A DNA stretch of 64,000 nt from a phage. The stretch lies in assembly GCA_025823825.1 (NCBI GenBank), contig GCA_025823825.1_4720.1; one strand, written 5' to 3'. Every line of letters begins with the position of its first letter. Positions within the stretch are counted from its first letter, which is position 1. Under the pieces are notes generated by a model that saw only the letters and a list, made by a program, of their open reading frames with translations, was not told the origin of the DNA and did no database searches. The translations under genes were made by a program, and so were the position numbers. Below, one piece after another: positions 7,008-55,540 of this stretch.

Positions 7008-8135
7008 TTATTTGGCGTCGTTAAAATAAATATCAACAGCTCGTTCCGTTGCGTAGAGGAGACCAAGATTCACAGTCCCAACCACTTCCGGTGAACCGAT
7101 GATACGGTTAGCGATACTGGTGCCACTGAAGATAGCATCAAGGGTGTGCCCGTCTTCGGTTTTGTTCACACCATGACCCACGGAAGAGACAACGGATTTC
7201 GCTTGTGCTGCGAAGGTACCTTTATCACCCATCCCCGCACCAAGGTCGTAACGCATGAAAATACGGATAGCGATCTGGTTCTCGCCTAACGGATTACCGT
7301 CTATTCTCACGTTACTGTTATTGATACGCCCCGTTGTTGCTTCGTTGAGTTTCAGTTCCTTAACGCGTTTAGCTCGCGCTTTATCCGCTTCACCGACGAG
7401 CGCCGCCATGGTTTCACTCATATCCTCAATCTGAGCACGGTACAATACATCGATCTGTACAACTTCACCATGAACGTCAGCACGTGGGTTATACTGACTC
7501 ATACGACGTAATGCTTCAACGGCTTCCTGGCTCTCATCGCTCAGATCAGTTGCAATCGGTTCTTCCAGTGTTGCAAGAATCGTTCGAGGTTCAACATGAT
7601 CACCGATTTTCACGAGACCACGAATGTTGAGATGAGCGTCAACAATGAGTGTACGACTTTTAATCGATGGTGTTACGAGGCGATCAGCAAGATTGTCGAA
7701 GATATACGAGCTATCCTCGTGCGTCTCTGGAATATCCAGAATACCAACAAGAGACAGAACACCTGCACGCCAAACAACCTGACCTGGGTTCCACCAATCG
7801 CGTTTAAAATAAAGACGATGGAAAACCACCACATCCTGATCCTTAACGCGATCCCCGACTTTATAATCGGTAATGAGATCGTGAGGATAATACTTACCTG
7901 GTCCTTTCCCGATTATCGTACCGAGCTGGAAAACCTCTTCCCCTAACTCTGGATCGTCGTATTGTATCGTAAGCGCAGTTTTGGTGACCTTCTTAACAAC
8001 ACCATCGCCTTGGGCAGCTGCTGCGAAGAGTTTACCAACACGATGCGCGATGACAGTCTCGCCACCAGTACGCCACGGTTGTACATCGTAACCTTCAGCA
8101 GCAATCATGCGGTTGTGCTGTATACCTATAAATAC
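7008..8135 (-). CDS. multisubunit RNA polymerase beta-like subunit, 3' exon
   Basis: Translation aligns by eye to bacterial beta: VFIGIQHNRMIAAEGYDV ~ VVTDEIHYLSAIEEGNYV; ETHEDSSYIF ~ GYNFEDSILV; IRIFMRYDLGAGMGDKGTFAAQAKSVVSSV ~ [30 protein letters not shown]. Frame is open upstream of the annotated TTG back to a stop at about 8153-8155; joins to the exon ending at 9833. Confidence 0.75.
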   Translation of the reverse strand, partial: VFIGIQHNRMIAAEGYDVQPWRTGGETVIAHRVGKLFAAAAQGDGVVKKVTKTALTIQYDDPELGEEVFQLGTIIGKGPGKYYPHDLITDYKVGDRVKDQDVVVFHRLYFKRDWWNPGQVVWRAGVLSLVGILDIPETHEDSSYIFDNLADRLVTPSIKSRTLIVDAHLNIRGLVKIGDHVEPRTILATLEEPIATDLSDESQEAVEALRRMSQYNPRADVHGEVVQIDVLYRAQIEDMSETMAALVGEADKARAKRVKELKLNEATTGRINNSNVRIDGNPLGENQIAIRIFMRYDLGAGMGDKGTFAAQAKSVVSSVGHGVNKTEDGHTLDAIFSGTSIANRIIGSPEVVGTVNLGLLYATERAVDIYFNDAK

Positions 8136-8481
8136 CAATCTCTTGGGCGAATTTAGTTCTTATTCAACATAATCATACTATTACCAGAATAAGACTGAGA
8201 TTAGATTGTTCAGATAAGGTCGTTAATCTTATCCCGGAGGCGACGATAGGCACATCACCTCCCGCTTACGTTCTCACGCAAGAGCAGACTATATCACATC
8301 TCGTCTTAGGCTTGTTTTCACAAGTCAAACGGTGCTTCTTCAGCACCTCAACGAGAGTTCACTTCTTCCCAGCGCATCCAGCGCCATTCTCTTATCCAAG
8401 GAGAATGCCTCACTCGAGGGGTACCGGGGGATGAATCCCTTAGTCGTTGAACCGTCACCCTAGAACGTTTCACAACGATCC

Positions 8482-9693
8482 TTAGGCGATTGGCTGCGGA
8501 TTACCCTTAGCCTGCGGACCACGAACTTTTAACGTGGTCAACTCTTCATTTTTAAAGCCCGCATCACGAGTTAATCGTCTCGCTTCTTGCACGTCTAACG
8601 TTTCCGTTTCCGCTTTGGCTGAAGGCAGCATTGGGCGTCCCCGCAATTCAATGAATCTCGTCCATACGTCACCGTATAAACGGACCCGCTCTTTGTAAAC
8701 AGAATAGTAAATATATCGCTTTCCATCAGGGAATTTCTTCATTCCTTCCGACTTCAAACGGTAATCTAACAATGTAGGACTGATCCCCATTTCTTTTGCG
8801 CATTCTACACCGGAGAGATACAACTTCGGTACGTCGTCTTCAGGAATAACCACAACGGCACGTTTGTTGTTTGTTTTCTCCAGTTCGATAATGCTATCAT
8901 CCACTTCACGCCATGGTGTTTGATCGGTTGCCCATTTCGCTTGGAGGAAACCATTAACGACCGGCTGATCTGGATCGTTAACATATTCCGATGCGGTGGG
9001 AAGCTTAACACCGATATGGTTGGCGAAATCCGTTAACGAATTAAAAATCTGGATTTCTTTCGTTAACGTGGATCTGGTAATAACACCTTTACTGGAGTCT
9101 TCAGATAGCGTAGCAATCTCGTATTCCGTCGGGATGTACCATGGGTCATCGCCGCGATATTTACGGTATTGCAACCTTTCGGTAAACGGACGTTCTTCAC
9201 CACGGTAAACACGATGATGAATGAAATCAATATTCACACCAAGTTTACGTGCTGCTTCCGTCATAGACGCATAATCCGTAACTTCTCCGGTATCGATATT
9301 GCGAACCTGAATGGGTTTGCCGTAAGCTTCGATGGCTTTTCGACGCATGGTCATGATGCGTGCGTGTTCGTTGTTCTCTTTTGCCGTCACCCATTCGAGA
9401 TTATCATTCTCCGTGTTACCGTCTGGATCAAGGTAATTATTAAGTTTATTACCGTCCTTATGGTTCACGTGGAGTTCGTATGCATCATCGATGTTACGAT
9501 ATGTCAACATCAATAAACGATGCATCGAACGATATGTGACAGTACCGTCGTGGCTACGAAACGCGTATCGCCAATACCCACCCATTATAACTGGCTTATA
9601 AATAAAACCAGTTTCTTTGTTACGCAATGTCCCATCAATGGCAATTTCAAGAAACGGGAATTCCTCTACTGTTTTGTACGTCAATTTTCTCAT
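8482..9693 (-). CDS. intron-encoded HNH homing endonuclease (403 aa)
   Basis: HNH_3-type motif HVNHKDGNKLNN…NLEWVTAKENNEHA; NUMOD-like DNA-binding motif TDYASMTEAARKLGVN; lies wholly inside the intron with its own promoter-like motif at 9739-9747. Confidence 0.8.
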   Translation of the reverse strand: MRKLTYKTVEEFPFLEIAIDGTLRNKETGFIYKPVIMGGYWRYAFRSHDGTVTYRSMHRLLMLTYRNIDDAYELHVNHKDGNKLNNYLDPDGNTENDNLEWVTAKENNEHARIMTMRRKAIEAYGKPIQVRNIDTGEVTDYASMTEAARKLGVNIDFIHHRVYRGEERPFTERLQYRKYRGDDPWYIPTEYEIATLSEDSSKGVITRSTLTKEIQIFNSLTDFANHIGVKLPTASEYVNDPDQPVVNGFLQAKWATDQTPWREVDDSIIELEKTNNKRAVVVIPEDDVPKLYLSGVECAKEMGISPTLLDYRLKSEGMKKFPDGKRYIYYSVYKERVRLYGDVWTRFIELRGRPMLPSAKAETETLDVQEARRLTRDAGFKNEELTTLKVRGPQAKGNPQPIA

Positions 9694-9738
9694 TGGCTAC
9701 ATTCCTTAAATCCTGCAGTGAACTTATCCTGCACTTTC

Positions 9739-9747
9739 GTAATATAG
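9739..9747 (-). promoter_or_regulatory. promoter-like motif CTATATTAC (minus strand) inside intron 1, upstream of the HNH ORF
   Basis: Same 9-mer and orientation as four other sites (1722, 28099, 41221, 53755), each upstream of a minus-strand gene start. Confidence 0.45.
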
Positions 9748-9832
9748 CCTTAATTCTGTTTACATTGAAGCCTTAATCATCTCTATCAGCAGCAGGTACT
9801 GCAAGTGCTGATGTACTCATTATTGACGAGCT

Positions 9833-12800
9833 ACCGTCCGTTTTCTCGTCGTAGGGTTTCGTTTCACCGTATACAGACACAATGTTTGCGTTAGGTGCGA
9901 GGTAAGCAGAAATACCTACATCCCCACTATCCTTCGTACCTTCGGATACAACACCAATGTCCGACTTGTCGTATTCACGATCGCGTGCGCGTCGAAGCGA
10001 TGTCTTTGAACGACCCCCGATACCGGTCATCGTTGCTTCTTCACCCTGCTTGATATCCAACATCGGGTTGGTTTCATCGATCACGATGGACGCGCTGTCG
10101 TCGAGAATTTGGTTCCAGACGCTTACCGGACTGATTGAGATTTTCTGACGATTTCCTTGACTGCTGTTCTCATTCTGGCGAATAGCGCCAACCAGGTCCT
10201 TATACACCAATTCAGCGAACTTATCGTACGTTTTAAAACGTTGGTAGTTCACATCGTTCGTGTTAGGTGCCCAGTCATCCAGAAGCAGTTCAACAGCACG
10301 CAGTAGCAACATGGCGAAATCGGTAGGTTCTCCCATGTTCTGTAATAGCGTACGGCTTACCGGATCAACGAAAAGACGCTCCATGAGTTCAAGTTCGCGT
10401 AAATGGCGAACCTTAAGTCCAGCACCATCGACAACGTTAAAATAGATATCTCGATTGTCGAAAGCACCGCGAGCGTAACCGATGTAGTTACGGTACTCGT
10501 TAAACCCACCCAACAACAACGTCGTCATGCGATCGTCTTTACTGAAGATCAAACTTTCGTCGTCAAAGCTCACCGCGAATTCATCTGGCGCTAACCCCAT
10601 ACGAGAACCACGAGGTACCGTACGATAGTTTGCTTTAAGATGTTCTAATAACGGGGTAAGTCCACCCAGATAACTTAGAACAACGCCAACCGGAATACGT
10701 ACACCCATGAATTCAAGATCGGCAGCTTCGATCGGCATCTTAGCCGCATTGATACCGAAGAAATCAGGGAACGTCCCTACAGGTGTTGGTGTTTGTCCTG
10801 ACTGACAGATATAGAGCTGATTGCGTTCATCGATCGCTAGGAATTCACCCGATGTGTTACGTGCGAACGTCAGGAGTCCTTCGGCTAACTGTTCGTTGAA
10901 CCGATCTTCCCCAATGAACTCCGGTAGCGTTTTTATATCGAGACGTATATCCCAATCAGCAAATTGGATTTGGGTATAATTGCGCGCAAGCACTGCAAAG
11001 TAGTACGGGACTTTGACAGCCGGATCAAAGACGTTACCACGTTTTAACGTGGTTAAGGGTGAGGACTTATCGTAATACATCGCTGTAAGTTGGCGTGTTA
11101 ACCAACGACCGGCGTTATTAACGACACGCTCTGAACGTTTAACAAACACCTTACCATAGGCGGTACTCAACGCAACTTCGGATGATGATACCTTTCTAAT
11201 AGGTTTATCAACACGTTGTTTACGCATCCGGTACTTGATGCCGTTAACGACATAAATGCCATCCTTACGAACCTTCGGCAACATCACCGGGAACGTGGTT
11301 GGGACACCGCCTACAGGAGCCAGTTTAATCGTGATGACTTGATAATCCCCCATCACGTCAACAACATCTTCAACTTTATATCCCGTAACAGGGTAACCAG
11401 CTTGCTGTACCGCAACAACGGCAGCTGCGATGTCCTTTTGCATTACATGTTCAACGTAATGTTTATCCCACACCGCAAGCGTCGATTTACATAGGCTCTT
11501 GTCGACGATAACGTCCGCTTCCGGCATAACCTTTGCGGGAGCTAATTTTGCGGCTTTTGGTTTAACTTCAACATACTCGGCAAGCGTTAATCCAGAACCG
11601 TCAGGTGCTTCGATTTCATGAATAGCGTCGGCATTACGCATCGCTGCTTTATATTGGACACCACTTAACTGACCCGCATCCGCCAGATCGCTCGCGCGCA
11701 CCAACACCGCATCCGATAACGACTGAATATATTCACCGTGCGTTTTTGGTAACGTTGCCGCGTCAAAGACATCAACCTTTTCTTCTTCGGTATCGTCGGT
11801 AACGACTTCGAAGAGATCGTCGGTAATGTCCTGATCTTCATCGGGCTGGAAATCCGGCTGTACTTCTACCCCGGGTACTTCACGGACATCTTCGAACGAG
11901 CGTTCTACAATGGCGTTCCACGCATCAGCGTCATCGTCTTCATCCGAACCACCGACCAACTCCGCTTCTAACTCGTCGGGATCAAGAACGGTAGCGAGAT
12001 CTTCACCGTTAGGAAGCATGACATCGCGATCATCGTACTCCGCATCCGGGCTGTCCGCAAGAATATCTCGCTCTTGACGAAGAACCTGTTCCTCTTCTTG
12101 TTTCTGTTCTTCTTCATTCGCGCTCTGCGACCACAGACGTGTTACCGCCATCATCCAACGACGCTGGAAGGTTTCAAGTGTCGTTTTATCGAGTTCTTCC
12201 CCTTCCTTTACAAGTCCGGTACGCCATTCTTCCAGCAGGCCAAGATTCAGCGTAAAGAAGTACACACCGTCTGTAAATACAACGTTAAGCTTATCCAGCG
12301 TGGCTCTGTCTAACGAAGCCATTGTGCTGTTCTCACGATCGGTTCCCAACCAGCGGAAGAAGTCAAAGAACGACAGCTCCTCCGGCGTAGCGAAATTCAT
12401 GAGGTTGTTACGGGTCGGTGCCTGTTGCGTGGTACGCATCAACGAAATCTTCGGCAATGTTGACGGTATACGGAACAACAGAAAGTGTTGACGATCGTTT
12501 TGTTGTGCGATTTCGTTGGCTTTCGACCAAATCGTTTTACGTACGTTGAACCATTCATCATACCAACGGGTGAGCGTTGGACGATAGATGTACATGTGGT
12601 TAAGATGTGCGTAGTTAGCAACGATCTGAGCGTTGATGTTTTTCTCCACCGCGCTTAGATCGGTAACCAAACGAAAACGACGATGCGATGCACGATAATC
12701 CAATTTCGCTCGTGGGAGTTGGAATCGTTGATCGCGTCGAGGCGCACCCTGTTTGGTTGCGAGATCATCAGCAAACGAAATCCATAGTTGAGCACTTTCT

Positions 12801-12982
12801 TTACTCAGCATGTATTCGTTTTCTGGAGGACCTATCAATGATGGATCCGTTGCGGTGTAATGATAGACAGCATAACGCGGCAGCTGCAATAGCTGCACTA
12901 AACGTAATCTCGGCGACAATAGCTCTTGGTAGCGTCGGACACCAAACTGTCGGTAGTAATCAAGGTATTTAAGTTTTGCCAT
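9833..12982 (-). CDS. multisubunit RNA polymerase beta-like subunit, 5' exon
   Basis: ATG at 12982 with GGAG ribosome-binding site. C-terminal region matches beta motifs: SEGTKDSGDVGISAYLAPNANIVSVYGETKPYDEKTDG ~ [36 protein letters not shown]. The last 20 codons of the annotated 1069-aa ORF (SSSIMSTSALAVPAADRDD) are intron read-through. Confidence 0.75.
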
Positions 12983-13165: not shown

Positions 13166-15220
13166 CCTTGTCTTCGCCTCAGTTCGCTACGCTGAGACCG
13201 CCTGCATGGATACGTACATCACAGGCTGCTTGCACTTTCATGCAAGAGGAGACTATATCAAACCGTCAGCTTCACCTTCTCGATCGTATCGAGAATGCGG
13301 CGCTGAAGAATACTTCAGCAGCACCTGTTACGGTAACCTACACTTCGAAGACGCTTGTCCTCTACAGGGTGGTAAATCCCTTAGTCGTTGAACCTGCGTT
13401 GTTTCACATTTTTGCAAACAAGAATGCCGTATTGCTACGCAACAACCAGGCTGCTGATTGCCCATTGTTTCGCACCTTAGCACCGCTTACGCGGCTTTTC
13501 TTTCAGCCTAAGCCTCTTACGGAGGTAGTGCATCTCAACTTTTGTTTCTGCCTTTCGGCACCTCATGGGTCGTTGAGCTTTAGGGGTTCCCAGCAATTCG
13601 TAGGTTTTTCAAGCACTCCCTTTCGGGAATACCGGACCTTTACCCTTTAGCTAATTTATTTAAGTATCTGAAATCCCACTTATCTTTACGTCGTTTATCG
13701 CACTTAATGTCAGGATGATTAACACGATGTCTGATGGTCGTCGCTGACAGCTGACTGAGATTCTCAGCAGATCGTGCGCCAAGAACAACGAGTTTTGTGT
13801 CGTCTGGACGCGTAACTTCTACTGCCCGATAATGCTTACGTAACACATCACGCCAATATTCACGACGTTCTGGTTCAGCATACTCAAGCATGTAACCGTT
13901 AACATCTACTAAACCGTAGCTTTCGTTTAATCGAGAGGTAGCGGCTGGTTTACTAATACCGATTGCTTTAGCCGCATCGACCACGGTTTTATACGGGGTC
14001 TCATTACCGTCTCTATCTACAACCATAATGAAATCTGGACGTGAATCGAGTAGCTGCTGTCTGCGTTCGACGGCTTGTTGATGAAGTACCATGTTAACGT
14101 GTTCGAACCCGTAACCTTCTGGGCCACGCCATCCTGGATTGTTGTTCGCTCGATAAAGTATCGTCGATGATTTCACTCCAGTCTGACGCGATGCCTCGTT
14201 TGCGCTATGAACAACCGTGGTAGAGCCGTCAGGATGATATATCCGTATCTGGTTCATTATACCGGAACCAATGAAGTTACCGTCGGCTGATTTAATGTCC
14301 GGCCATGGTTGCGGGTCATCTTTGAATTTAACCACCCAGCGGTTGTTAAACAGCTTAACTTTTCGAACATGTTTGCCTAATGTCGTATCCGTAACACCTG
14401 CGATCACTGATGCTTGTGTGATGCTCAGGTACTCAGTAACGGTATCGTTCCAAGTATCCCAAAGCAGAACCGGTTTATTGTCGTCGCGTAAACCATGTTC
14501 GATAGCATGTAGGACATTACGACTTCTGGTCGCCCATTCCAGGTTATCGAGAGAATAGTTCCACTTATCAGCATCAAGATGATTAACGTCCAGACTATCG
14601 ACATTTGCTGGATATTCCCGCCACGCCAACATCAAGCAACGGTGTAATCCCTTATTACCAGCCTTCTGGCGACAATCATGTTTCAAGCAGACAGTAACGT
14701 AACGGTTCGTTTCGAAACGTGGATGATAGATACTCCCGTCCTTTCTGTCTCTGATTTCACCTGCTTCGTTTATTACGTATCTCGTCATTCCTGGAATAAC
14801 ACGATAACCGGGGTACTTAGCGATCTCATAAGCAGGCTCGAAACGATAGGACAAATTATCAACATCCCAATTAGATTCGTTACCGTCAACAAACATCGCT
14901 TTGACGTACTTCTGTGTTTCAATATCAACCAGGATGTTTTTGTGTGCGATACAAATCAATGCTGGGATATTGAATTCGCGACCGACTAAATTAACTGTGT
15001 CGCCGTTTCTCGGTATCTCGACGTGGGTATCGCGATACCGTAAGTTTCCATAGCCGTCTATTTCAATCCAGCTCAGAAACGGAATAGATATAAATTCTTT
15101 TTCAGATACACGCCATTTAAACATATAAACCTCTGTATAACCTTACTATCACACTAAGAGGTTTATCTGTAAATTCTTACAAAACGGCGTAAATTACTAA
15201 AAAGGTCGATCACCGCCTAA
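13166..15220 (-). mobile_element. group I intron (about 2.05 kb) inside the beta'-like RNAP gene, carrying an HNH homing endonuclease ORF
   Basis: On the minus strand: Q-like AATCAGCAGC (about 13456-13465), R-like GUUCAACGACUAAGGGAUU (about 13377-13396), S-like GAUAUAGUCUCC (about 13250-13261), then the 3' splice site after a G. 5' exon ends in U (…gcc ggt). Spliced junction gives …YLAG|FDGD…, rebuilding a YNADFDGD-like catalytic motif. Confidence 0.75.
13640..15124 (-). CDS. intron-encoded HNH homing endonuclease (494 aa)
   Basis: HNH_3-type motif VNHLDADKWNYSLDNLEWATRSRNVLHA; NUMOD-like motif SITQASVIAGVTDTTLGKHV; own ribosome-binding site (agagg) before ATG at 15124. Confidence 0.8.
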   Translation of the reverse strand: MFKWRVSEKEFISIPFLSWIEIDGYGNLRYRDTHVEIPRNGDTVNLVGREFNIPALICIAHKNILVDIETQKYVKAMFVDGNESNWDVDNLSYRFEPAYEIAKYPGYRVIPGMTRYVINEAGEIRDRKDGSIYHPRFETNRYVTVCLKHDCRQKAGNKGLHRCLMLAWREYPANVDSLDVNHLDADKWNYSLDNLEWATRSRNVLHAIEHGLRDDNKPVLLWDTWNDTVTEYLSITQASVIAGVTDTTLGKHVRKVKLFNNRWVVKFKDDPQPWPDIKSADGNFIGSGIMNQIRIYHPDGSTTVVHSANEASRQTGVKSSTILYRANNNPGWRGPEGYGFEHVNMVLHQQAVERRQQLLDSRPDFIMVVDRDGNETPYKTVVDAAKAIGISKPAATSRLNESYGLVDVNGYMLEYAEPERREYWRDVLRKHYRAVEVTRPDDTKLVVLGARSAENLSQLSATTIRHRVNHPDIKCDKRRKDKWDFRYLNKLAKG

Positions 15221-16717
15221 ACCGGCGAGGTATGGGGCTGGGACAATAGTCGTTTCTACGAATGAAGCATTAGGTAACCAGTCGGGGTATTCCCATGCGA
15301 TAAATCGTTCATCCGTTATTGGTTCCCAGTTACTATCCAGTTCGGTTTTCGGTTTTGCGGCGACGGTTGTACGTGCGTAACAGGTTAACGGGATAACGGA
15401 TTGCATACCTGATACCGGATAACGTGTTACCATTGCAGCCAGGTTATTCCAGTACTTATATCCGGCAATATAGATAAGCTCGGTGTAAGTAATGGGGTGA
15501 ACATCCGCGCCAGGTTTATTCAACATCTCCGGGGGTAATTCACTCATGCCACGGAATAACCGAAACGAATCGTTGTTCACATAGACGAGGCAAAGATATC
15601 GTCCATTGACCATGATAGGCTCGTTACGCACGCCAGGATCGCTTAAGGTGTTCAGTAAACGTTCTATTCCGTCCCATGTTGTAAAGTCATCGATGGTGTC
15701 TGGATCAAGCGTGACGCGCTCACGTTCCATCGTTTCGGTATCAATAAGTTCAACTTCTGTAACATCACGGACAAATATTTCCTGCAAAATACCGGTACGT
15801 AACGCATGTTGCGTTACTGGGAGAGCGGCTTTACTCATCTGGTATAACCCTAACTGAACCGCGGTACAGGAAGGCTGGTTAGGCGACCCTAATACCTCCG
15901 TTGTGGGGTTAATTGCCGAAATAACGTTACGGGTTGAGTTCCAAACACGACGTGAGCCGAACTTACCTTGGAAGATCCCTTTCTTACCTTGGAACATATC
16001 CAACAACAAAGCGTAGATATCGTTAAATGTTCTCTGTAAGCTCCAGCGCTGGCCGTCGTAAACGGGATCAGAATAATCTTTTAATCCATCAGGGACGGTG
16101 TTAGAAATTGCAAGGAAACGACGATACAACTCTGTGATTTCTTGCTCGCTTTCATACCCGCCTTCTTTTACTTCTATTTCACGTAAGCCTGCAGGTAAAA
16201 CCAGTAAGTGACGGGTCATCGCTTTGAACATGTTCTCTTCGACGACTTTAATACGTAGCTCTCGTTGAGCTGAACCCGTTGAAACGAACTTAATATCAGC
16301 GACGTGTTGTGCGAAGAACCCGTATCCTGTTTGTCCTGTTAATGCATCAGACGCAACGAAGTCGCGTTGTTCTGGATCCCAACGCGCGTACGCCTTTCCT
16401 GACATGATATCACCATAGAGGTGTTTTAGTCGAATGAGGCGATCGTAAATGACAGGATGCAGGATTTCAACTTTGCATTCAATCACCGCAAATCGACGGT
16501 CTCGGTCTTCACTGCCCGCACTACCAAAGATGGTGTAAGAATAGAAACCGTCATCATGGAAATTACCGGTGCTTGGGTCACGAATGCTCATGCTCGTGAT
16601 CTTGGGGAGAAAACGTAACTGCTGTTTATCGAGGTGTAAAATACTAATGTTAAACGGCTCTCTGACTTTAGCCATGGAGACACTCCTCTTTACCACCACC
16701 GGCTGCGGCGGTATCAT
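15221..16717 (-). CDS. multisubunit RNA polymerase beta'-like N-terminal subunit, 5' exon
   Basis: beta' homology: GKKGIFQGKFGSRRVWNSTRNVISAINP ~ [35 protein letters not shown] ~ LPPDLRP; YRRFLAISN ~ YRRVINRNN. Likely true start is the ATG of MAKVREPF (about 16674) preceded by AGAGGAG. The annotated stop at 15197 lies in the intron. Confidence 0.75.
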
Positions 16718-50797: not shown

Positions 50798-51223
50798 TCA
50801 AATTCCTTCTTTCAAAATCTCATTAAGACCGTCAGTAATCCAGTCGAACTTCGTCTTAATCATGGCTGGGTTCAATCCATATACTTCCCACACAAGCTGG
50901 GGTTTATGTGTTCCATCGTCCAAACAAAGCACATCGATTGAGAGTACCATACCACCCGTCAATTTCATGTTCTCGCAACTACGAAGATATGCGGATTCTA
51001 GCAATACTTTCCCTAACGCAGTGCAAGCAAATGTTAACCGGGAAGAGTACAGGTACGATGACGTTTTACAGTAGGTTGCTGATATCGGTTGAATATGTTT
51101 GCGGAGTTTGGCGTCTTCACGTAAAAGCAATAACGTGTGATGTAACCGCGTATGCTCGGTAACCGATGAGCTATACTCACCGATACACTCTTCGGCGACT
51201 GATTTAGGCCATTTAATTTGCAT
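50798..51223 (-). CDS. hypothetical protein (141 aa)
   Basis: ORF in array, 1-nt spacing to the neighbour. Confidence 0.45.
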   Translation of the reverse strand: MQIKWPKSVAEECIGEYSSSVTEHTRLHHTLLLLREDAKLRKHIQPISATYCKTSSYLYSSRLTFACTALGKVLLESAYLRSCENMKLTGGMVLSIDVLCLDDGTHKPQLVWEVYGLNPAMIKTKFDWITDGLNEILKEGI

Positions 51224-51238
51224 GTTCGATTCCCCTTA

Positions 51239-51682
51239 TTAGCAGTACGTGTCGTTCAACACGCGACTCACGTCTAAATGTTCTAGTTGATGTATAATGC
51301 CATCAGCAATGCGTTGTAGATAGGCTGTCTTATCCAATACCGAATCCGATGAAATCGCCCAGTAGGCTTCTGATACCCGATATTCGCTACCTTCACCGAG
51401 ACTGACCTGATTAACCAGCTTCACATCAGCGTATCTCGTCCCACGTTCAGCGTACCAGTAGATGTTTTCCAGTACGTCCTTTCCCGTTTGTGAAAACACA
51501 AACCAAAGCTTCACGTCTAAGCCGGATACTTCGACATCAACGCAGCGAAGATGATTCTCCAAAGGCGCAAAAGAGGCTAAACGTTCCAGCGCGTTTTGCA
51601 GCGTGGGGTGATTAAGCTTTTCTAGATCTTTAGCGGGTTGTTTAGATGATAGCGCGATCGATTTACAGAATTTGGTTTCCAC
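51239..51682 (-). CDS. hypothetical protein (147 aa)
   Basis: ORF in array. Confidence 0.45.
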   Translation of the reverse strand: METKFCKSIALSSKQPAKDLEKLNHPTLQNALERLASFAPLENHLRCVDVEVSGLDVKLWFVFSQTGKDVLENIYWYAERGTRYADVKLVNQVSLGEGSEYRVSEAYWAISSDSVLDKTAYLQRIADGIIHQLEHLDVSRVLNDTYC

Positions 51683-51790
51683 GGTAGGTTCCTCTTGATA
51701 GATGGTAGTAACGGGGATACCGCGGTATCCCCTAAGTCTTTATAACACATTCCAAGCCATATTGGATACAGGCTCGTTACGTTCGATGAA

Positions 51791-52192
51791 TCACATCAGT
51801 TGTTCTTTAAGTTGGGTTAACTTATTCGCAACGATGGTCTCAACATCGATGATCTTGTTCATGTTGTCGAGGGTATCCTGCCAGATGAAAATATCCACAG
51901 AACGGGTTCCGGCTAACCCGTTCTCAGGACGATGGTCGCGGGTCACGTAGCGTGGTCTCTGCGGGCAGGTTTGTAACTCGATCCAAAGCGCATCTAACGG
52001 ACCACGGTCCGTGACACCTAAGGCGAAGAATTCACCTCGTACGACCAGAACATCATCAGCCGTCCTGACACGGGTTGATCCTTCGTACACCAATTCCATC
52101 TTTGCTCGGCAGGCTGGGTTCTCGTTCCACGCCTGGACGGCATCGGCAAGGGCTATTGACGTTGCGGTGGTGTTCGTTTGATCATGTTGCAT
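51791..52192 (-). CDS. hypothetical protein (133 aa)
   Basis: ORF in array. Confidence 0.45.
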   Translation of the reverse strand: MQHDQTNTTATSIALADAVQAWNENPACRAKMELVYEGSTRVRTADDVLVVRGEFFALGVTDRGPLDALWIELQTCPQRPRYVTRDHRPENGLAGTRSVDIFIWQDTLDNMNKIIDVETIVANKLTQLKEQLM

Positions 52193-52269
52193 TCTAAGCT
52201 CCTGTAACGCTCTCTAAGCGTCGTTTTAAGTTAAGGTATAGTTTCCCTTCTTTGGATTCGTTTATTGCG

Positions 52270-52545
52270 TTATACGGCTTTTCTGTGCGCGTAGAACGCC
52301 TTCGTTCCGTTGTTGATTGCTTCAACCACATCCCGGGTTAACACAACGGCGTTATCGCTTCGAGACGACGGTGCGTAATACCCTTCACCGTTCTCGGTAA
52401 TCAGGCGATAACGGACTAAGCCTATGCTCGGTTCAACACGTAGCACCTTTTCAAGTTTGTATTTGATGATCTTCGTCAGGCTGACTGTGTCTGACGCGTA
52501 GATTGCTTTATAAACCTTGTTCTTTGCTGTCGGTTTCATCAACAT
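52270..52545 (-). CDS. hypothetical protein (91 aa)
   Basis: Short ORF in array. Confidence 0.4.
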   Translation of the reverse strand: MLMKPTAKNKVYKAIYASDTVSLTKIIKYKLEKVLRVEPSIGLVRYRLITENGEGYYAPSSRSDNAVVLTRDVVEAINNGTKAFYAHRKAV

Positions 52546-52585
52546 GATTTCTGTTGTACTTTCCTTTTCGCTTGTTGGTGTTGGA

Positions 52586-52939
52586 TTAAGGTTTAGGTTC
52601 CGTTTTGTGTTGTGTGAGTAGTGTGTTGATCTGCTCCCGTTGTTCTTTTAAGTATGCGGGAAGCTGGTCTTCCCATACCGTTCCGATTTCCAACGTGATG
52701 TACCAGCGTTGTTCGGAAGCCAGCCATTGAAAACCGCTCTGTAAACGAAGGATGCTAGGATCACGTACCTTGCTTGCGCTGTAACGGTTGAACCAATCCA
52801 GGTATTCTGCTTTCCCTTCATCGTCGGCAACGTAACGCTGCACGCTGTTCTTCCCTTTGTTCTCGTATCCCGTTGCACGTATCATGCGAGCGTTGCTCCC
52901 GTATCGTGTTGCGTATGGCGTAGCATGGTAGCATCCCAT
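52586..52939 (-). CDS. hypothetical protein (117 aa)
   Basis: ORF in array; overlaps the upstream ORF's 3' end. Confidence 0.4.
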   Translation of the reverse strand: MGCYHATPYATRYGSNARMIRATGYENKGKNSVQRYVADDEGKAEYLDWFNRYSASKVRDPSILRLQSGFQWLASEQRWYITLEIGTVWEDQLPAYLKEQREQINTLLTQHKTEPKP

Positions 52940-53664
52940 TGTACGATCCGGCTCCGGCTTACCCGCATCATGATGGATTCGTCATCAAGCCCTGGTTGCA
53001 CAACCGGCAACCAACGTTCGTTAAGCACCTTCGCTTCAACGCGTTTCTTGCGGGGATTGTAACGCACCTCGCTAACCCAAGCGAATCCAAGTGGATGCAC
53101 AACCCGTGGATAATACATGCGGAGCAATTGATGCATCCGATCTGTCACCTCCAGGTTAACATCCACCATGTAAGGTTTCACCATGGTAAGCTTTTTGGTG
53201 TAATACGTTCCAACGGTATGGTTACGCCAGCATGGCAAGGCATGATCCCCTTCTCTCAGTTTGCTATCCGGGTTCATCGGCCAGAACTGCTGTTCACCGC
53301 CCAGCATCGCGTGCCGCCGATCAACGCAACGAACCTGATCGGCGAACAATGGATCCAGGATATCATCCACCGCGCCCTTATTGCGATAACCGTGATGTAC
53401 CACCAACCTGCTTGCGCTCATCCGTTGCGGATGCTGGCTCTTATGCGCATACAGTCCTCCATCACCGCGCGTGTCGTAAAGATAGCCGCATGCGCCACGC
53501 CATATCACCTTGCCTACGGTTCTCTCGTTTTCAAGCAGCATCGTCGGCCCATCAAGCAAATTGGTGAACCACTGCACCTTCACGCATTCCGCTTGGACAT
53601 GCTCAGGTAATGCCTGATACTCTTTTTGGGTGTATAAGGTATCAAAAATGATTTCATCGTTCAT
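52882..53664 (-). CDS. hypothetical protein (260 aa)
   Basis: First gene of the array; promoter-like motif at 53755-53763 about 90 nt upstream. Confidence 0.5.
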   Translation of the reverse strand: MNDEIIFDTLYTQKEYQALPEHVQAECVKVQWFTNLLDGPTMLLENERTVGKVIWRGACGYLYDTRGDGGLYAHKSQHPQRMSASRLVVHHGYRNKGAVDDILDPLFADQVRCVDRRHAMLGGEQQFWPMNPDSKLREGDHALPCWRNHTVGTYYTKKLTMVKPYMVDVNLEVTDRMHQLLRMYYPRVVHPLGFAWVSEVRYNPRKKRVEAKVLNERWLPVVQPGLDDESIMMRVSRSRIVQWDATMLRHTQHDTGATLA

Positions 53665-53754
53665 TTAAAAGATCCTCTGTTTTTCACGTTAATTAAACAA
53701 CGTATTGATTTCTATTCGATAGCAATACGAACATCGTACGTATGCATCATGAAG

Positions 53755-53763
53755 GTAATATAG
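53755..53763 (-). promoter_or_regulatory. promoter-like motif CTATATTAC (minus strand)
   Basis: Extended conservation with sites at 28099 and 41221 (TTTCACGGCTATATTACCTTCATGATG on the minus strand). Confidence 0.5.
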
Positions 53764-54507
53764 CCGTGAAAGGATTTGTGTTACAGAAGGGTTTTGTTGT
53801 TTTTAAGAAGGGATGGATTTAGAAGAGGTGTTTCAAGGAAGGTAAACGAGGATAGGTATTTTGATTTAAGTAAGTAAGATGTTATCTGTATTTGTTAAAA
53901 GTGTATTGTTTATCTTAGGTTATGTCTTATTGTTTAATCGTTTAATATTTTTATCTACGTAGGTTTAACTCTATCTTGTTTGTATATTTAAATTAATTTA
54001 AAAGTAAGTCAATAAGCGTATCTTCAAAACAATGGATAACATGTGTTTACTACCTTAACGGTAACACATGTCATCTGTGCATTACACTCCGTTACATGCT
54101 GGTTAAATCGGATAACTCAAAAAAACATTTGTGATACTCTTCTTCACGTTGTTCATCAGAGTATCTCGTCTATACTCATTGCATTCGTATACGACATAAC
54201 CGTTATACGCTAACGCTACGCTTATAGCTTGATAACTCTAAGGATAAAAACATAAACTCGCTTCGCTCGTTTAGTTTTTCTTTTTCTTAGAGTTATCCTG
54301 TTGCTCGTCTCTAAAGGACTTCGCTCCTCCCCCGTCCCCCGAAGGGGCCGAGGTCGTGGAAATTTTACTTTCCAAATACATTTACAACATCTGTAAACTT
54401 TTACTCCAGGTACTTAATCTTATCATTAGAAATTATAAAAGAGAAGAATAAACATAAACATAAACCTTCCTCCAACCCAGCAGGGAAGGAGGAAGGGAGA
54501 GATTAAA

Positions 54508-55401
54508 TTATTCGGAAACGTTATAGCCGAATACTGCTTTACCGTAGGTGTGGGTACCGTCAGCTAACGACACCACTAACACATTGCTGTACGTAGCGTT
54601 AACACCATTGTCGGTAGAACTGGTGGTAGCACCGTTATAGACAAAGGTAGCTGTTTGCAGATTGGTTTTCAGTTCATTGATGATATCATCACTTACGCCG
54701 GTCTGCTCTTTGATCAGGGTGGTCAGGTTACCTGCTAAGCTTGCATCGATCTTGGTGTCGTTACTGGTAATAGCTTGTAAACCTGCAGTGTAGGTGCTGA
54801 AGTCTAACGGATAGGTTAACAGACGCGCTGAGGTCTTGGTACCATCGCCTTCATCAACGTAGGTTAAGTTACCCAGGTTGGTAACCTCGATGATGTTAGC
54901 CAGATCCAGCGTGGTGTTATAAACTTTAACTTGAACAGAGCCATACCACGCCAACGAATCTTCTTTGGCTTCCAGGGTGATCGTCTGGATACCAGACTGA
55001 TCGAAGGTAACCGGAGTAGCTAACGTTTCGGCTTTGATGTCTTTCGCTTTATCCAGGAACTTCTCACCGGAAGGCGTGATCATACCGTAGCGTTGAGCTA
55101 CAAGGTCAACCACATCACCGATGGTGGTGTTCGCCTCAACGTTAACACGTACGGCGATCTTCTGGAACCACTTAGCCAGATCCAGACGATGGTAGGTAAC
55201 ATCGCGGTTATTGAAGTAAGGGGTACCTTCACCAGGACTAAGTGTTAAAGTTGCTTCTGGAGCAGAAGGATTCTTTTCTTTAAGGACGTATTTAAGGTCG
55301 GTATATTTAAAGCTGGCACCAGTGTCAGCGTTAAGCTGGTTGATCTCATCAACGATAAGTTGCCAAGGTGTTTTTAAAGTAAGCGATACTTGAGCAGTCA
55401 T
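54508..55401 (-). CDS. probable abundant structural protein (about 297 aa)
   Basis: Start corrected to ATG at 55401 (MTAQVSLTLK…) with ribosome-binding site aggaag; the annotated N-terminal 91 codons overlap the divergent gene and are rejected. Strong codon bias; Thr/Asn/Ser-rich. Confidence 0.55.
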   Translation of the reverse strand: MTAQVSLTLKTPWQLIVDEINQLNADTGASFKYTDLKYVLKEKNPSAPEATLTLSPGEGTPYFNNRDVTYHRLDLAKWFQKIAVRVNVEANTTIGDVVDLVAQRYGMITPSGEKFLDKAKDIKAETLATPVTFDQSGIQTITLEAKEDSLAWYGSVQVKVYNTTLDLANIIEVTNLGNLTYVDEGDGTKTSARLLTYPLDFSTYTAGLQAITSNDTKIDASLAGNLTTLIKEQTGVSDDIINELKTNLQTATFVYNGATTSSTDNGVNATYSNVLVVSLADGTHTYGKAVFGYNVSE

Positions 55402-55540
55402 TTTCTTCCTCGATAGTTGGTACATCACTCTCAAAAGATGTAAGTGTTTACAGAAATTAATATATTTTATATTAAATGTGAATATTATGGAGAACGACTC
55501 CGAATCTCCTTTTCGACCATCAAAATCAGAGGACACGAAC

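Follow-up and report, generated by a model that had tools for sequence, protein, structure and literature searches.

A conserved, hairpin-rich block in the largest gene-free interval of a Goslar-like jumbo phage: a candidate non-coding RNA gene

INTRODUCTION

Candidate non-coding RNAs (ncRNAs) have been reported in phiKZ and 201phi2-1, among them TU237 (141 nt) and 5'UTR_gp40 (196 nt) of phiKZ and sRNA005 of 201phi2-1 (PMC10914365, PMC11512511), and Pseudomonas phage PAK_P3 produces ncRNA1 and ncRNA2, which are abundant late RNAs derived from 3' untranslated regions (UTRs) (PMC10914365). Transcription signals have been described as well. Early promoters are defined for phiKZ (TATATTAC) and, as an extended motif, for 201phi2-1 (PMC7058600 Table 2); the phiKZ middle promoter consists of an A-rich tract and then TACT, centred 22 nt upstream of the transcription start site (PMC8244752); the late-promoter consensus of the phiKZ non-virion RNA polymerase (nvRNAP) is TATG, with the G at +1 (PMC7618050, PMC7598289); and the phiKZ terminator motif reads BCCYCCCCHWWDGGGRRGGBYTTATKYYGT (PMC10914365). 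Here we describe the largest interval free of open reading frames (ORFs) in a 64,000-nt stretch of phage DNA (GenBank assembly GCA_025823825.1, contig GCA_025823825.1_4720.1; this whole stretch is called the window below). The interval, positions 53665-54507, contains a conserved block at 54118-54404 on the minus strand, hereafter the core, which is probably a structured ncRNA gene.

THE INTERVAL AND ITS RELATIVES

Positions 53400-54800 of the window match Escherichia phage vB_EcoM_Goslar (NC_048170), a 237-kb nucleus-forming jumbo phage with E. coli as its host, at ~91% identity; identity to Goslar is 96-98% over the whole window and 89-92% from 53576 onward. Goslar serves as the E. coli model for nucleus-forming jumbo phages, and its RefSeq record leaves the corresponding 854 bp (Goslar 14972-15825) blank, between gp021 (hypothetical) and gp022 (virion structural), both encoded on the minus strand. 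No ncRNA of the Goslar genus has been described so far, and the literature that we searched makes no mention of a Goslar transcriptome or ncRNA. In the window the gap measures 843 nt and is bordered by the start of a 260-aa ORF, the gp21 homologue (52882-53664, minus strand), and by the stop codon of the gp22 homologue (54508); it is read throughout on the minus strand, the same as the flanking genes. gp22 is a DUF7941 fibre protein which, with ~580 copies per virion, is among the most abundant virion proteins (bioRxiv 10.64898/2026.04.21.720040).

A preliminary description of this interval had noted the lack of any sizeable ORF, and this is borne out: the longest ORFs encode 56 aa (GTG start, plus strand, 54043-54213) and 36 aa (minus strand, 54271-54381), and in a greedy ORF map the gap ranks first among the ORF-free intervals of the window, the next ones measuring 373, 334 and 283 nt. 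The AT-richness ascribed to the whole interval holds at 53850-54050 (21-24% GC) and fails at 54100-54400, where GC content is 34-50% (window average 42-52%). The gap is thus a mosaic of a conserved, moderate-GC core and a variable AT-rich spacer rather than one element. The discrete elements that had been listed are all there, displaced from the given coordinates by a few bases at most. The inverted repeat ATAACTCTAAG/CTTAGAGTTAT is longer than originally given (arms 54231-54250/54278-54297, 20 nt, 85% complementary), GAGTAT...ATACTC lies at 54159-54177, and the GC hairpin and the promoter-like motif near 53755 correspond to the terminator and early promoter described below.

The locus was collected by way of gp22 and gp21 homologues from IMG/VR, JGI/ENA metagenomes, Logan assemblies and contigs in Salmonella, Shigella and E. 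coli assemblies, which yielded at least 22 distinct Goslar-like genomes (individual relatives carry labels such as L017 below).

CONSERVATION OF THE CORE

The block that extends from GTAAAAGTTTACAG to CACAAATG and includes the T-run behind it (54118-54404) is nearly invariant across the alignments. In 18 relatives a 280-nt core is 92-100% identical to the window, as against 60-89% for the third codon positions of gp22, and the two figures can be far apart in a single relative (100% versus 73% in L017, 98.9% versus 63.5% in L030). Taken over 54118-54404, identity across the 22 genomes has the same range, 92-100%. The gp21 proteins are 42-90% identical within the same set of relatives, and in L037, whose gp21 protein is 43% identical to that of the window, the core is 99% identical. 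Against L017, the core is the best-conserved 280-nt stretch within 12 kb. The core evolves many-fold slower than the synonymous sites of the neighbouring gene, and this slow evolution next to diverged neighbouring genes makes an ncRNA the most likely explanation.

Conservation in related phages had been named as a check in the preliminary description, and the core is indeed kept at the same syntenic place, without exception, in the Goslar-like genomes examined, which contain 22 distinct versions of it. It is single-copy in Goslar, as judged by nhmmer. In metagenomic contig L021 the T-run of the core is joined almost directly to the CT-rich block that precedes the downstream early promoter, which argues that the core is a self-contained unit. 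Conserved beyond neutral expectation, syntenic, non-coding and single-copy, the core has the properties looked for in a stand-alone ncRNA gene. In a sister clade of two members, in which gp22 is ~50% identical, the terminator is followed by an early promoter or by small genes (in the distant relative L011 the early-promoter motif comes directly after the terminator) and the island between them is absent, which indicates that it is specific to the Goslar lineage.

FOLD AND STRAND OF THE CORE

A consensus fold of the minus strand was computed with RNAalifold, and pairing was tested on 22 sequences. The core folds into a chain of seven hairpins, P2, P3, P4, P5, P6, P9 and P10, with the following layout:

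54118-54404, minus strand: conserved single-copy core, candidate ncRNA gene (conservation, folding, strand asymmetry)
54380-54398, minus strand: P2, which may be promoter DNA rather than RNA
54357-54374, minus strand: P3 (RNAalifold)
54330-54353, minus strand: P4, with a C(UUCG)G tip
54314-54329, minus strand: P5, with a GCGAAG loop
54232-54296, minus strand: P6, a long 65-nt hairpin with the tip CGAGC-GAA-GCGAG
54196-54231, minus strand: middle region, with three AGCGU repeats
54168-54195, minus strand: P9, with the tip CGAAU-GCA-AUGAG
54133-54165, minus strand: P10, followed by ACAAAUG and a U-run at 54119-54125

The central 295 nt fold better than shuffled sequences on either strand (z = -5.13 for the minus and -4.4 for the plus strand), which means that hairpin density exceeds chance. 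When the 62 pairs of P3-P10 are followed through the 22 sequences, 1364 of 1364 cells hold standard pairs, and the variable pairs, in P4, P6 and P9, are kept in six cases out of six, with substitutions that all preserve pairing. By alignment column, the variants are:

P4 outer stem, columns 80-101: C-G, U.G, U-A; columns 81-100: U.G, C-G
P6, columns 161-177: A-U, G.U
P9, columns 243-259: U-A, U.G
P9 tip, columns 248-254: A-U, G-C, G.U; columns 249-253: U-A, C-G

Taken as doublets, the P4 outer stem alternates among C-G/U.G, U.G/C-G and U-A/C-G, and the P9 tip changes from A-U/U-A to G-C/C-G, A-U/C-G or G.U/C-G.

The two strands are not equivalent. The consensus energy is -79.5 kcal/mol on the minus strand versus -62.4 kcal/mol on the plus strand, and the mean single-sequence energy -86.4 versus -71.9 kcal/mol, which favours the minus strand by 15-17 kcal/mol; moreover, three invariant G.U pairs and all the wobble substitutions would, on the plus strand, turn into C.A mismatches. 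Selection acts on the minus strand as a single strand, in the same sense as the flanking genes. A conserved, strand-specific structure with compensatory or wobble changes, as looked for in a stand-alone ncRNA gene, is found here, from few events and with 56 of the 62 pairs invariant.

Some features go beyond the helices. The tips of P6 and P9 share a module, CGA-NN-GNA-NN-GAG, which combines a C-G closure, tandem G.A pairs, a 2-bp stem and a GNA triloop, and they are the only two minus-strand instances of this pattern with complementary NN in Goslar. The predicted single-stranded stretches of the core are also invariant, which points to constraints beyond secondary structure. In the middle region (54196-54231), C201 and A226 are deleted together, a hint of a helix there. 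An alternative long hairpin spanning 54168-54231 is slightly disfavoured by substitutions in L023 and L024, and the B-type L013 folds as P9.

THE EDGES OF THE CORE

The 5' edge of the core is a palindrome that recurs elsewhere in the genome:

54391-54404, minus strand: palindromic motif GTAAAAGTTTACAG, 5' edge of the invariant block and first 14 nt of the core

The arms are GTAAA/TTTAC and the motif is invariant in 22 genomes. With at most two mismatches, GTAAAAGTTTACAG has eight other sites in Goslar, five of them intergenic in a genome that is 7.7% intergenic (binomial P ~4e-4), and the intergenic ones lie upstream of gp23, the major head protein gene, chmA and gp69. The copy upstream of chmA, first noticed as a weak nhmmer match, is identical at 16 of 16 positions, with similarity extending downstream, and in the copy upstream of gp23 the GTAA/TTTAC arms are preserved from clade to clade but the centre is not. 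Copies of the pattern GTAA-N3-TTTAC(A/T) are located as follows:

Window 55440-55453, plus strand: GTAA-N3-TTTAC(A/T)
Window 15168-15180, minus strand: GTAA-N3-TTTAC(A/T)
Goslar 45757, 81200, 173098, 176758 and 188961: GTAA-N3-TTTAC(A/T)

For the Goslar copies at 176758 and 188961, no gene is evident downstream on the same strand. GTAA-N3-TTTAC(A/T) is a candidate middle or late promoter, or operator, of Goslar-like phages, and GTAAAAGTTTACAG, which resembles the verbal description of the phiKZ middle promoter, would be a promoter or regulatory element of the core RNA.

At its 3' edge the core ends with the P10 hairpin, a 7-nt spacer (ACAAAUG) and a U-run of 5-9 nt, the length of which varies between genomes. 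Scans for sigma-70 promoters and canonical terminators gave nothing above chance.

THE FLANKS OF THE CORE

From the stop codon of gp22 down to the start of the gp21-like gene, the remainder of the gap can be divided into the following parts:

54453-54496, minus strand: predicted terminator of the gp22 gene, of the intrinsic type, with a GC-rich hairpin (arms 54465-54478/54483-54496) and TTTATGTTTATG behind it
54405-54452, minus strand: T-rich, moderately variable spacer between terminator and core (alignments)
54013-54117, minus strand: facultative module after the U-run, in which GAGUUAUCC, repeating the P6 3' arm, is joined by a hairpin of 13-16 bp and UUAUCCAUUGUUUUG
53863-54012, minus strand: hypervariable AT-rich spacer, 21-24% GC
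53790-53862, minus strand: conserved CT-rich block, almost G-free, upstream of the early promoter (GC skew of +0.65 to +0.8 on the plus strand)
53754-53771, minus strand: predicted Chimalliviridae early promoter, of the virion RNA polymerase (vRNAP) type, of the gp21-like operon, TTTCACGGCTATATTACC
53665-53753, minus strand: 5' leader of the gp21-like early gene, containing a ribosome-binding site and small hairpins (e.g. 53701-53712/53718-53729)

The terminator hairpin lies directly after the gp22 stop codon and is kept in all relatives. Together with its TTTATG tail it fits the phiKZ terminator motif and has the features of that class. The tail holds two TATG motifs (G at 54459 and 54453), and a module made of a GC-rich hairpin and TTTATGC(C/T)G is present in ~10 copies in Goslar upstream regions. 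Goslar copies of this module include those at 55080, 87250, 110470, 140970 and 180590, and many follow genes. With the TATG late-promoter consensus in its tail, the module may double as a terminator and a restart site. The spacer that separates it from the core holds a conserved ATAAGATTA(A/G)GTA, with TAAGATTAAGTA at 54411-54422, a motif that is unique in the window and has no recurrent match in Goslar intergenic regions. ATAAGATTAAGTA was considered as a shared promoter and rejected because it is unique.

On the other side of the core, the sequence is far more fluid. The facultative hairpin (arms 54035-54047/54063-54075, followed by UUAUCCAUUGUUUUG) is missing in L005/L027, L018 and L021, and the L025 sequence ends before that point; where the hairpin is present, its tip varies and its stem is kept. 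Seven relatives (L019, L023, L024, L025, L012, L030 and L038) have a perfect 10-bp hairpin, AACGTTTTGT-GAAG-ACAAAACGTT, directly after the T-run of the core, which the window lacks; with this hairpin gained or lost at one position, the site looks like a hotspot of small palindromic insertions or deletions. In 16 genomes, the AT-rich spacer shows column identities of 0.48-0.75 and gaps of up to 42%; it is shortened in L026 and wholly missing in L021. The CT block has identities of 0.76-0.93 across the 16 genomes, is retained in L021, and carries an anti-Shine-Dalgarno-like CCUUCC as well as CACCUCUUCU (ACCUCCUU in the B clade). It lies 30-110 nt upstream of the early promoter and was not seen by eye at two other early-promoter copies. 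The distance from the core to the early promoter varies by ~350 nt between relatives, and optional hairpins lie between the two.

The predicted early promoter, TTTCACGGCTATATTACC, contains the phiKZ motif TATATTAC and resembles the extended motif of 201phi2-1. Its central part, CTATATTACC (53754-53763, minus strand), is preceded by TTTCACGG, and with at most one mismatch it occurs 12 times in the window when 2.7 are expected, a number that 0 of 100 shuffles reach. Intergenic copies share the context TTTCACGG-CTATATTAC, and in UViG11560 the motif is duplicated. Behind the promoter, the gp21 leader shows a conservation of 0.66-0.94. The gp21 homologue itself (52882-53664, minus strand) has 62% protein identity to Goslar gp021, the family ranging from 42 to 90%. 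Neither this protein nor those of the early block downstream matched a Pfam or PHROG family, and an AlphaFold model of gp21 (pLDDT 56.5) was too poor for a fold search and gave no functional lead. The gene content of the early operon downstream of gp21 (block 50798-52939) differs between close relatives. gp21 and the block downstream of it are a fast-evolving early accessory block.

SEARCHES FOR KNOWN FAMILIES, HOMOLOGUES AND TARGETS

The tRNA and Rfam scans proposed in the preliminary description found no tRNA, tmRNA or RNA family in the gap: ARAGORN detected no tRNA or tmRNA in the window, and at gathering score the only window match to Rfam 15 is a group I intron outside the gap. With E <= 10, the only Rfam match in 53500-54650 is a TrxA-thermometer in the gp21 leader (18.5 bits versus a gathering score of 58, E = 4.8), a sub-threshold match that was treated as chance. 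Only Goslar-like contigs carry the core, according to blastn searches of phages, E. coli genomes and GTDB genomes and exact-pattern scans of IMG/VR, and a protein-guided metagenome scan likewise returned only Goslar-like contigs. The nearest other chimalliviruses (Cronobacter CR5 and Erwinia phages) have only gp22 paralogues, in a different context. Within Goslar, nhmmer found no paralogue of the core, just the locus itself and the weak match upstream of chmA. A search for antisense targets of the core in the Goslar genome gave short matches only; two longer ones, 20 of 21 nt in gp147 and 17 of 18 nt in gp230, were rejected as targets because they are gapped, same-sense and inside coding sequence.

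The group I intron lies at 13229-13721 (minus strand; Rfam RF00028, 60.8 bits), and it is probably the Goslar Intron_gpI of 211817-212245, beside an RNA polymerase subunit gene. Elsewhere in the window, the RNA polymerase beta-subunit gene (Goslar gp207) is interrupted at 8138-9789 (minus strand) by 1.65 kb of inserted DNA that Goslar lacks, which leaves the gene as two ORFs, 9773-12982 and 7008-8138. The insertion contains an HNH/NUMOD-like homing-endonuclease ORF of 403 aa (8482-9693), and 8265-8707 match a group I intron with 49.9 bits, just short of the Rfam gathering score of 50; the insertion is probably an additional mobile intron of this phage. In Goslar, outside the window, the second-largest unannotated gap (82470-83288, ~820 nt) comes after a NUMOD1/HNH endonuclease gene beside the DNA polymerase gene gp068, and may hold an intron or an unannotated exon.

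WHAT THE CORE IS LIKELY TO BE

The explanation that we favour, and consider probable with some reserve, is that the core is a structured ncRNA gene that has not been described before, is confined to Goslar-like phages and sits between an ordinary terminator and an ordinary early promoter. Two of the roles put forward in the preliminary description agree with this picture. The regulatory junction is present, formed by the terminator of the late gene gp22 and the early-class promoter of the next operon, and a small-RNA locus is very probably present too, given the conservation, the structure-preserving substitutions and the strand asymmetry. The core RNA would be transcribed by the phage nvRNAP, which would start at the palindromic GTAAAAGTTTACAG, at a TATG in the terminator tail or upstream, by read-through from gp22, and the transcript would end at the P10 hairpin and its U-run. 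If GTAAAAGTTTACAG is the promoter, the 5' end would be at ~54372-54380 and the RNA would run down to ~54119, a length of ~255-290 nt. P2 and a long-range helix (21-24/132-135), both of which are possibilities only and may lie upstream of the transcription start, would in that case be DNA and not RNA.

As for the function of such an RNA, the repeated module at the tips of P6 and P9 and the invariant predicted single-stranded stretches lead us to a working guess, speculative and put forward tentatively: a scaffold or decoy that binds protein in trans. A more ambitious version seems unlikely, namely that the core is an essential RNA of the nucleus-forming cycle, either a ribonucleoprotein scaffold or decoy co-regulated with chmA, capsid and fibre genes via GTAAAAGTTTACAG, or the pre-primer RNA of a chimallivirus replication origin.

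Several points weigh against an ncRNA gene. The core RNA is a prediction from the comparison of sequences and from computed folds, and GTAAAAGTTTACAG was assigned as a promoter from motif recurrence, its refined pattern having been built post hoc. Against the B clade, the most divergent one, the core ties for best, with a coding segment of the gp25 tail-fibre gene as conserved as the core (0.96 versus 0.954, with a neighbourhood mean of 0.84), so that conservation of the core is strong without being unique. The structural argument comes down to ~6-8 independent substitution events in closely related, recombining genomes, since 56 of the 62 pairs never vary; the covariation score of 0.052 is above all 500 shuffles (0.035 +/- 0.002) and above slid partners (0.006-0.016), but phylogeny alone exceeds this shuffle control in 5-25% of unconstrained alignments. 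No stable consensus fold emerges for the middle region (54196-54231), where predicted pairs are broken by two substitutions, and in L021 the UUCG loop of P4 is inverted to CGAA. The 3' edge, with P10, ACAAAUG and a U-run, is unlike the hairpin-TTAT terminator class of the phage itself. Finally, GC-GNA-GC mini-hairpins are classic stable DNA hairpins too, which makes a function in single-stranded DNA conceivable.

A role of the interval at the level of DNA, as a cis element such as an origin, a transcript-primed (R-loop) origin or a packaging or protein-recognition site, is nevertheless improbable in our estimate. The hairpins would then be extruded or act in single-stranded DNA and the AT-rich spacer would favour unwinding, in agreement with the fact that a stretch of 21-24% GC adjoins a structured, conserved block. 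G-runs and GC-GAA-GC mini-hairpins are features of ColE1 RNA II, mitochondrial CSBII and the G4/phiX174 origins, and the core, which has both (its G-runs include GGGGGACGGGGGAGG), resembles transcript-primed or single-strand origins in this respect; its 5'-edge palindrome could be a protein operator, and the phage encodes an RNase H-like protein (gp190). The island also lies at a change of slope in the cumulative GC skew of Goslar (~16-20 kb) and at a gene-module boundary. However, this skew neither switches sign nor reaches a V-shaped extremum at 15-16 kb: its slope changes at ~16-20 kb and ~100 kb, it is roughly flat over ~18-100 kb and it otherwise declines to a minimum at ~214 kb. The gap has no conserved tandem or dispersed repeat family or iterons, and AAGATAA is not enriched (16 in the window versus 9.3 expected, a number that 6 of 100 shuffles reach, with a single copy in the gap). 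The replication origin suggested in the preliminary description is thus not supported, given the lack of a polarity switch in the complete Goslar genome, the lack of iterons and an AT-rich part that is hypervariable, shortened in one relative and absent from L021, and the sister clade at 50% identity replicates without the island. Furthermore, a pairing asymmetry that admits G.U and never C.A, together with the UUCG tetraloop, fits RNA better than duplex DNA.

If selection acts on RNA, this RNA could in principle be part of an mRNA, either as a long, structured 3' UTR of gp22 serving stability or processing, or as a leader or attenuator that gates late read-through into the gp21 operon, with P9, the GAGUAU...AUACUC hairpin and P10 plus its U-run as anti-antiterminator, antiterminator and terminator. 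The core is oriented like both of its neighbours, the 3' part of P9 and the 5' part of P10 can indeed form the alternative hairpin 54159-54177, short RNAs derived from 3' and 5' UTRs are documented in PAK_P3 and phiKZ, and gp22 is one of the most abundant proteins of the virion (bioRxiv 10.64898/2026.04.21.720040), which could mean considerable read-through. A cis-acting role in mRNA is nonetheless difficult to reconcile with a strong, class-typical terminator ahead of the core, a promoter-like motif of its own, and a gp21 early promoter downstream at a spacing that varies by as much as described above, optional hairpins included, and we rate it as improbable too. It is very unlikely that the core lacks a function of its own, whether as a conserved boundary between mosaic modules that frequent homologous recombination keeps uniform or as what is left of a mobile insertion, with incidental hairpins. 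The genomes are clearly recombining mosaics in which long identical runs occur elsewhere, the 299-nt perfect run here being only the 14th longest against Goslar in the window, a caveat for any argument from conservation; divergence of the core is incongruent with that of gp22 and gp21, relatives differ in the genes that their downstream early block contains, and hairpin insertions come and go beside the core. Recombination alone, however, cannot prevent mutation, substitutions avoid helices or are compensated within them, all 22 distinct versions have the core at the same place, and a single-copy sequence without relatives elsewhere gives no sign of mobility. Least credible of all is a small protein, encoded by the 36-aa ORF at 54271-54381 (minus strand; MYLESKISTTSAPSGDGGGAKSFRDEQQDNSKKKKN) or by micro-ORFs in the AT-rich part. 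Although the 36-aa ORF is intact in all relatives inspected and three of four single-base changes fall at third codon positions (a manual count on one alignment), it has no Shine-Dalgarno sequence, its start codon lies inside the P2/promoter segment, its peptide is of low complexity, and it spans ~110 of ~290 conserved nt, about a third of the block, leaving the 3' half uncovered; its third positions vary no more than the first two, in contrast to gp22, and the few substitutions include four amino-acid changes. The micro-ORFs envisaged in the preliminary description fare no better in the spacer, where ORFs shift frame, change length or vanish between relatives.

If the core is an ncRNA gene, the Goslar system would gain a new, testable player: a single-copy RNA whose conservation exceeds that of almost all neighbouring genes, and which seems to have a regulatory motif in common with chmA, the major capsid gene and the gene of the most abundant fibre protein. 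Should the core be inert, the gap would still be explained as terminator, spacer and early promoter. Either way, the early promoter, the hairpin-TTTATGC terminator and the GTAA-N3-TTTAC palindrome provide working definitions for genome annotation.

COMPARISON WITH KNOWN SYSTEMS

Transcript-primed origins are exemplified by ColE1 RNA II, T4 ori(uvsY)/ori(34) and the T7 primary origin. In general layout, without comparison of sequences, they are like the island in having a structured or G-rich transcript, an AT-rich stretch and a promoter-rich junction; the island differs in that its AT-rich part is dispensable in a natural relative and in that it shows no skew signature and no initiator sites. 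GOLLD and ROOL (Rfam) are likewise long, conserved, hairpin-rich, phage-borne ncRNAs. The core has no Rfam match at E <= 10, however, and is a simple chain of hairpins without many-way junctions that does not lie beside tRNAs.

The PAK_P3 ncRNAs lie downstream of a gene and have no obvious canonical promoter, for which read-through from gp22 would be a possible parallel route to the core RNA. They belong to another phage family and have no homology to the core, which is separated from gp22 by a terminator and preceded by a promoter-like motif. The predicted signals on the flanks are of the phiKZ type, each with a flanking consensus of its own in Goslar, TTTATGC(C/T)G for the terminator and TTTCACGG for the early promoter.

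The core is larger than the phiKZ-like ncRNA candidates (~255-290 versus 71-196 nt), is not located in a 5' UTR, is predicted from sequence only and has no similarity to them, blastn and nhmmer finding nothing outside Goslar-like phages. In other respects the likeness is close. Those candidates are, like the core, short non-coding units in the rare intergenic spaces of Chimalliviridae; they are structured, conserved within a genus, bounded by phage promoters and terminators, for which the core has candidates, and have no function assigned. The closest known kind is therefore that of the uncharacterised intergenic or UTR-derived ncRNA candidates of phiKZ, 201phi2-1 and PAK_P3.

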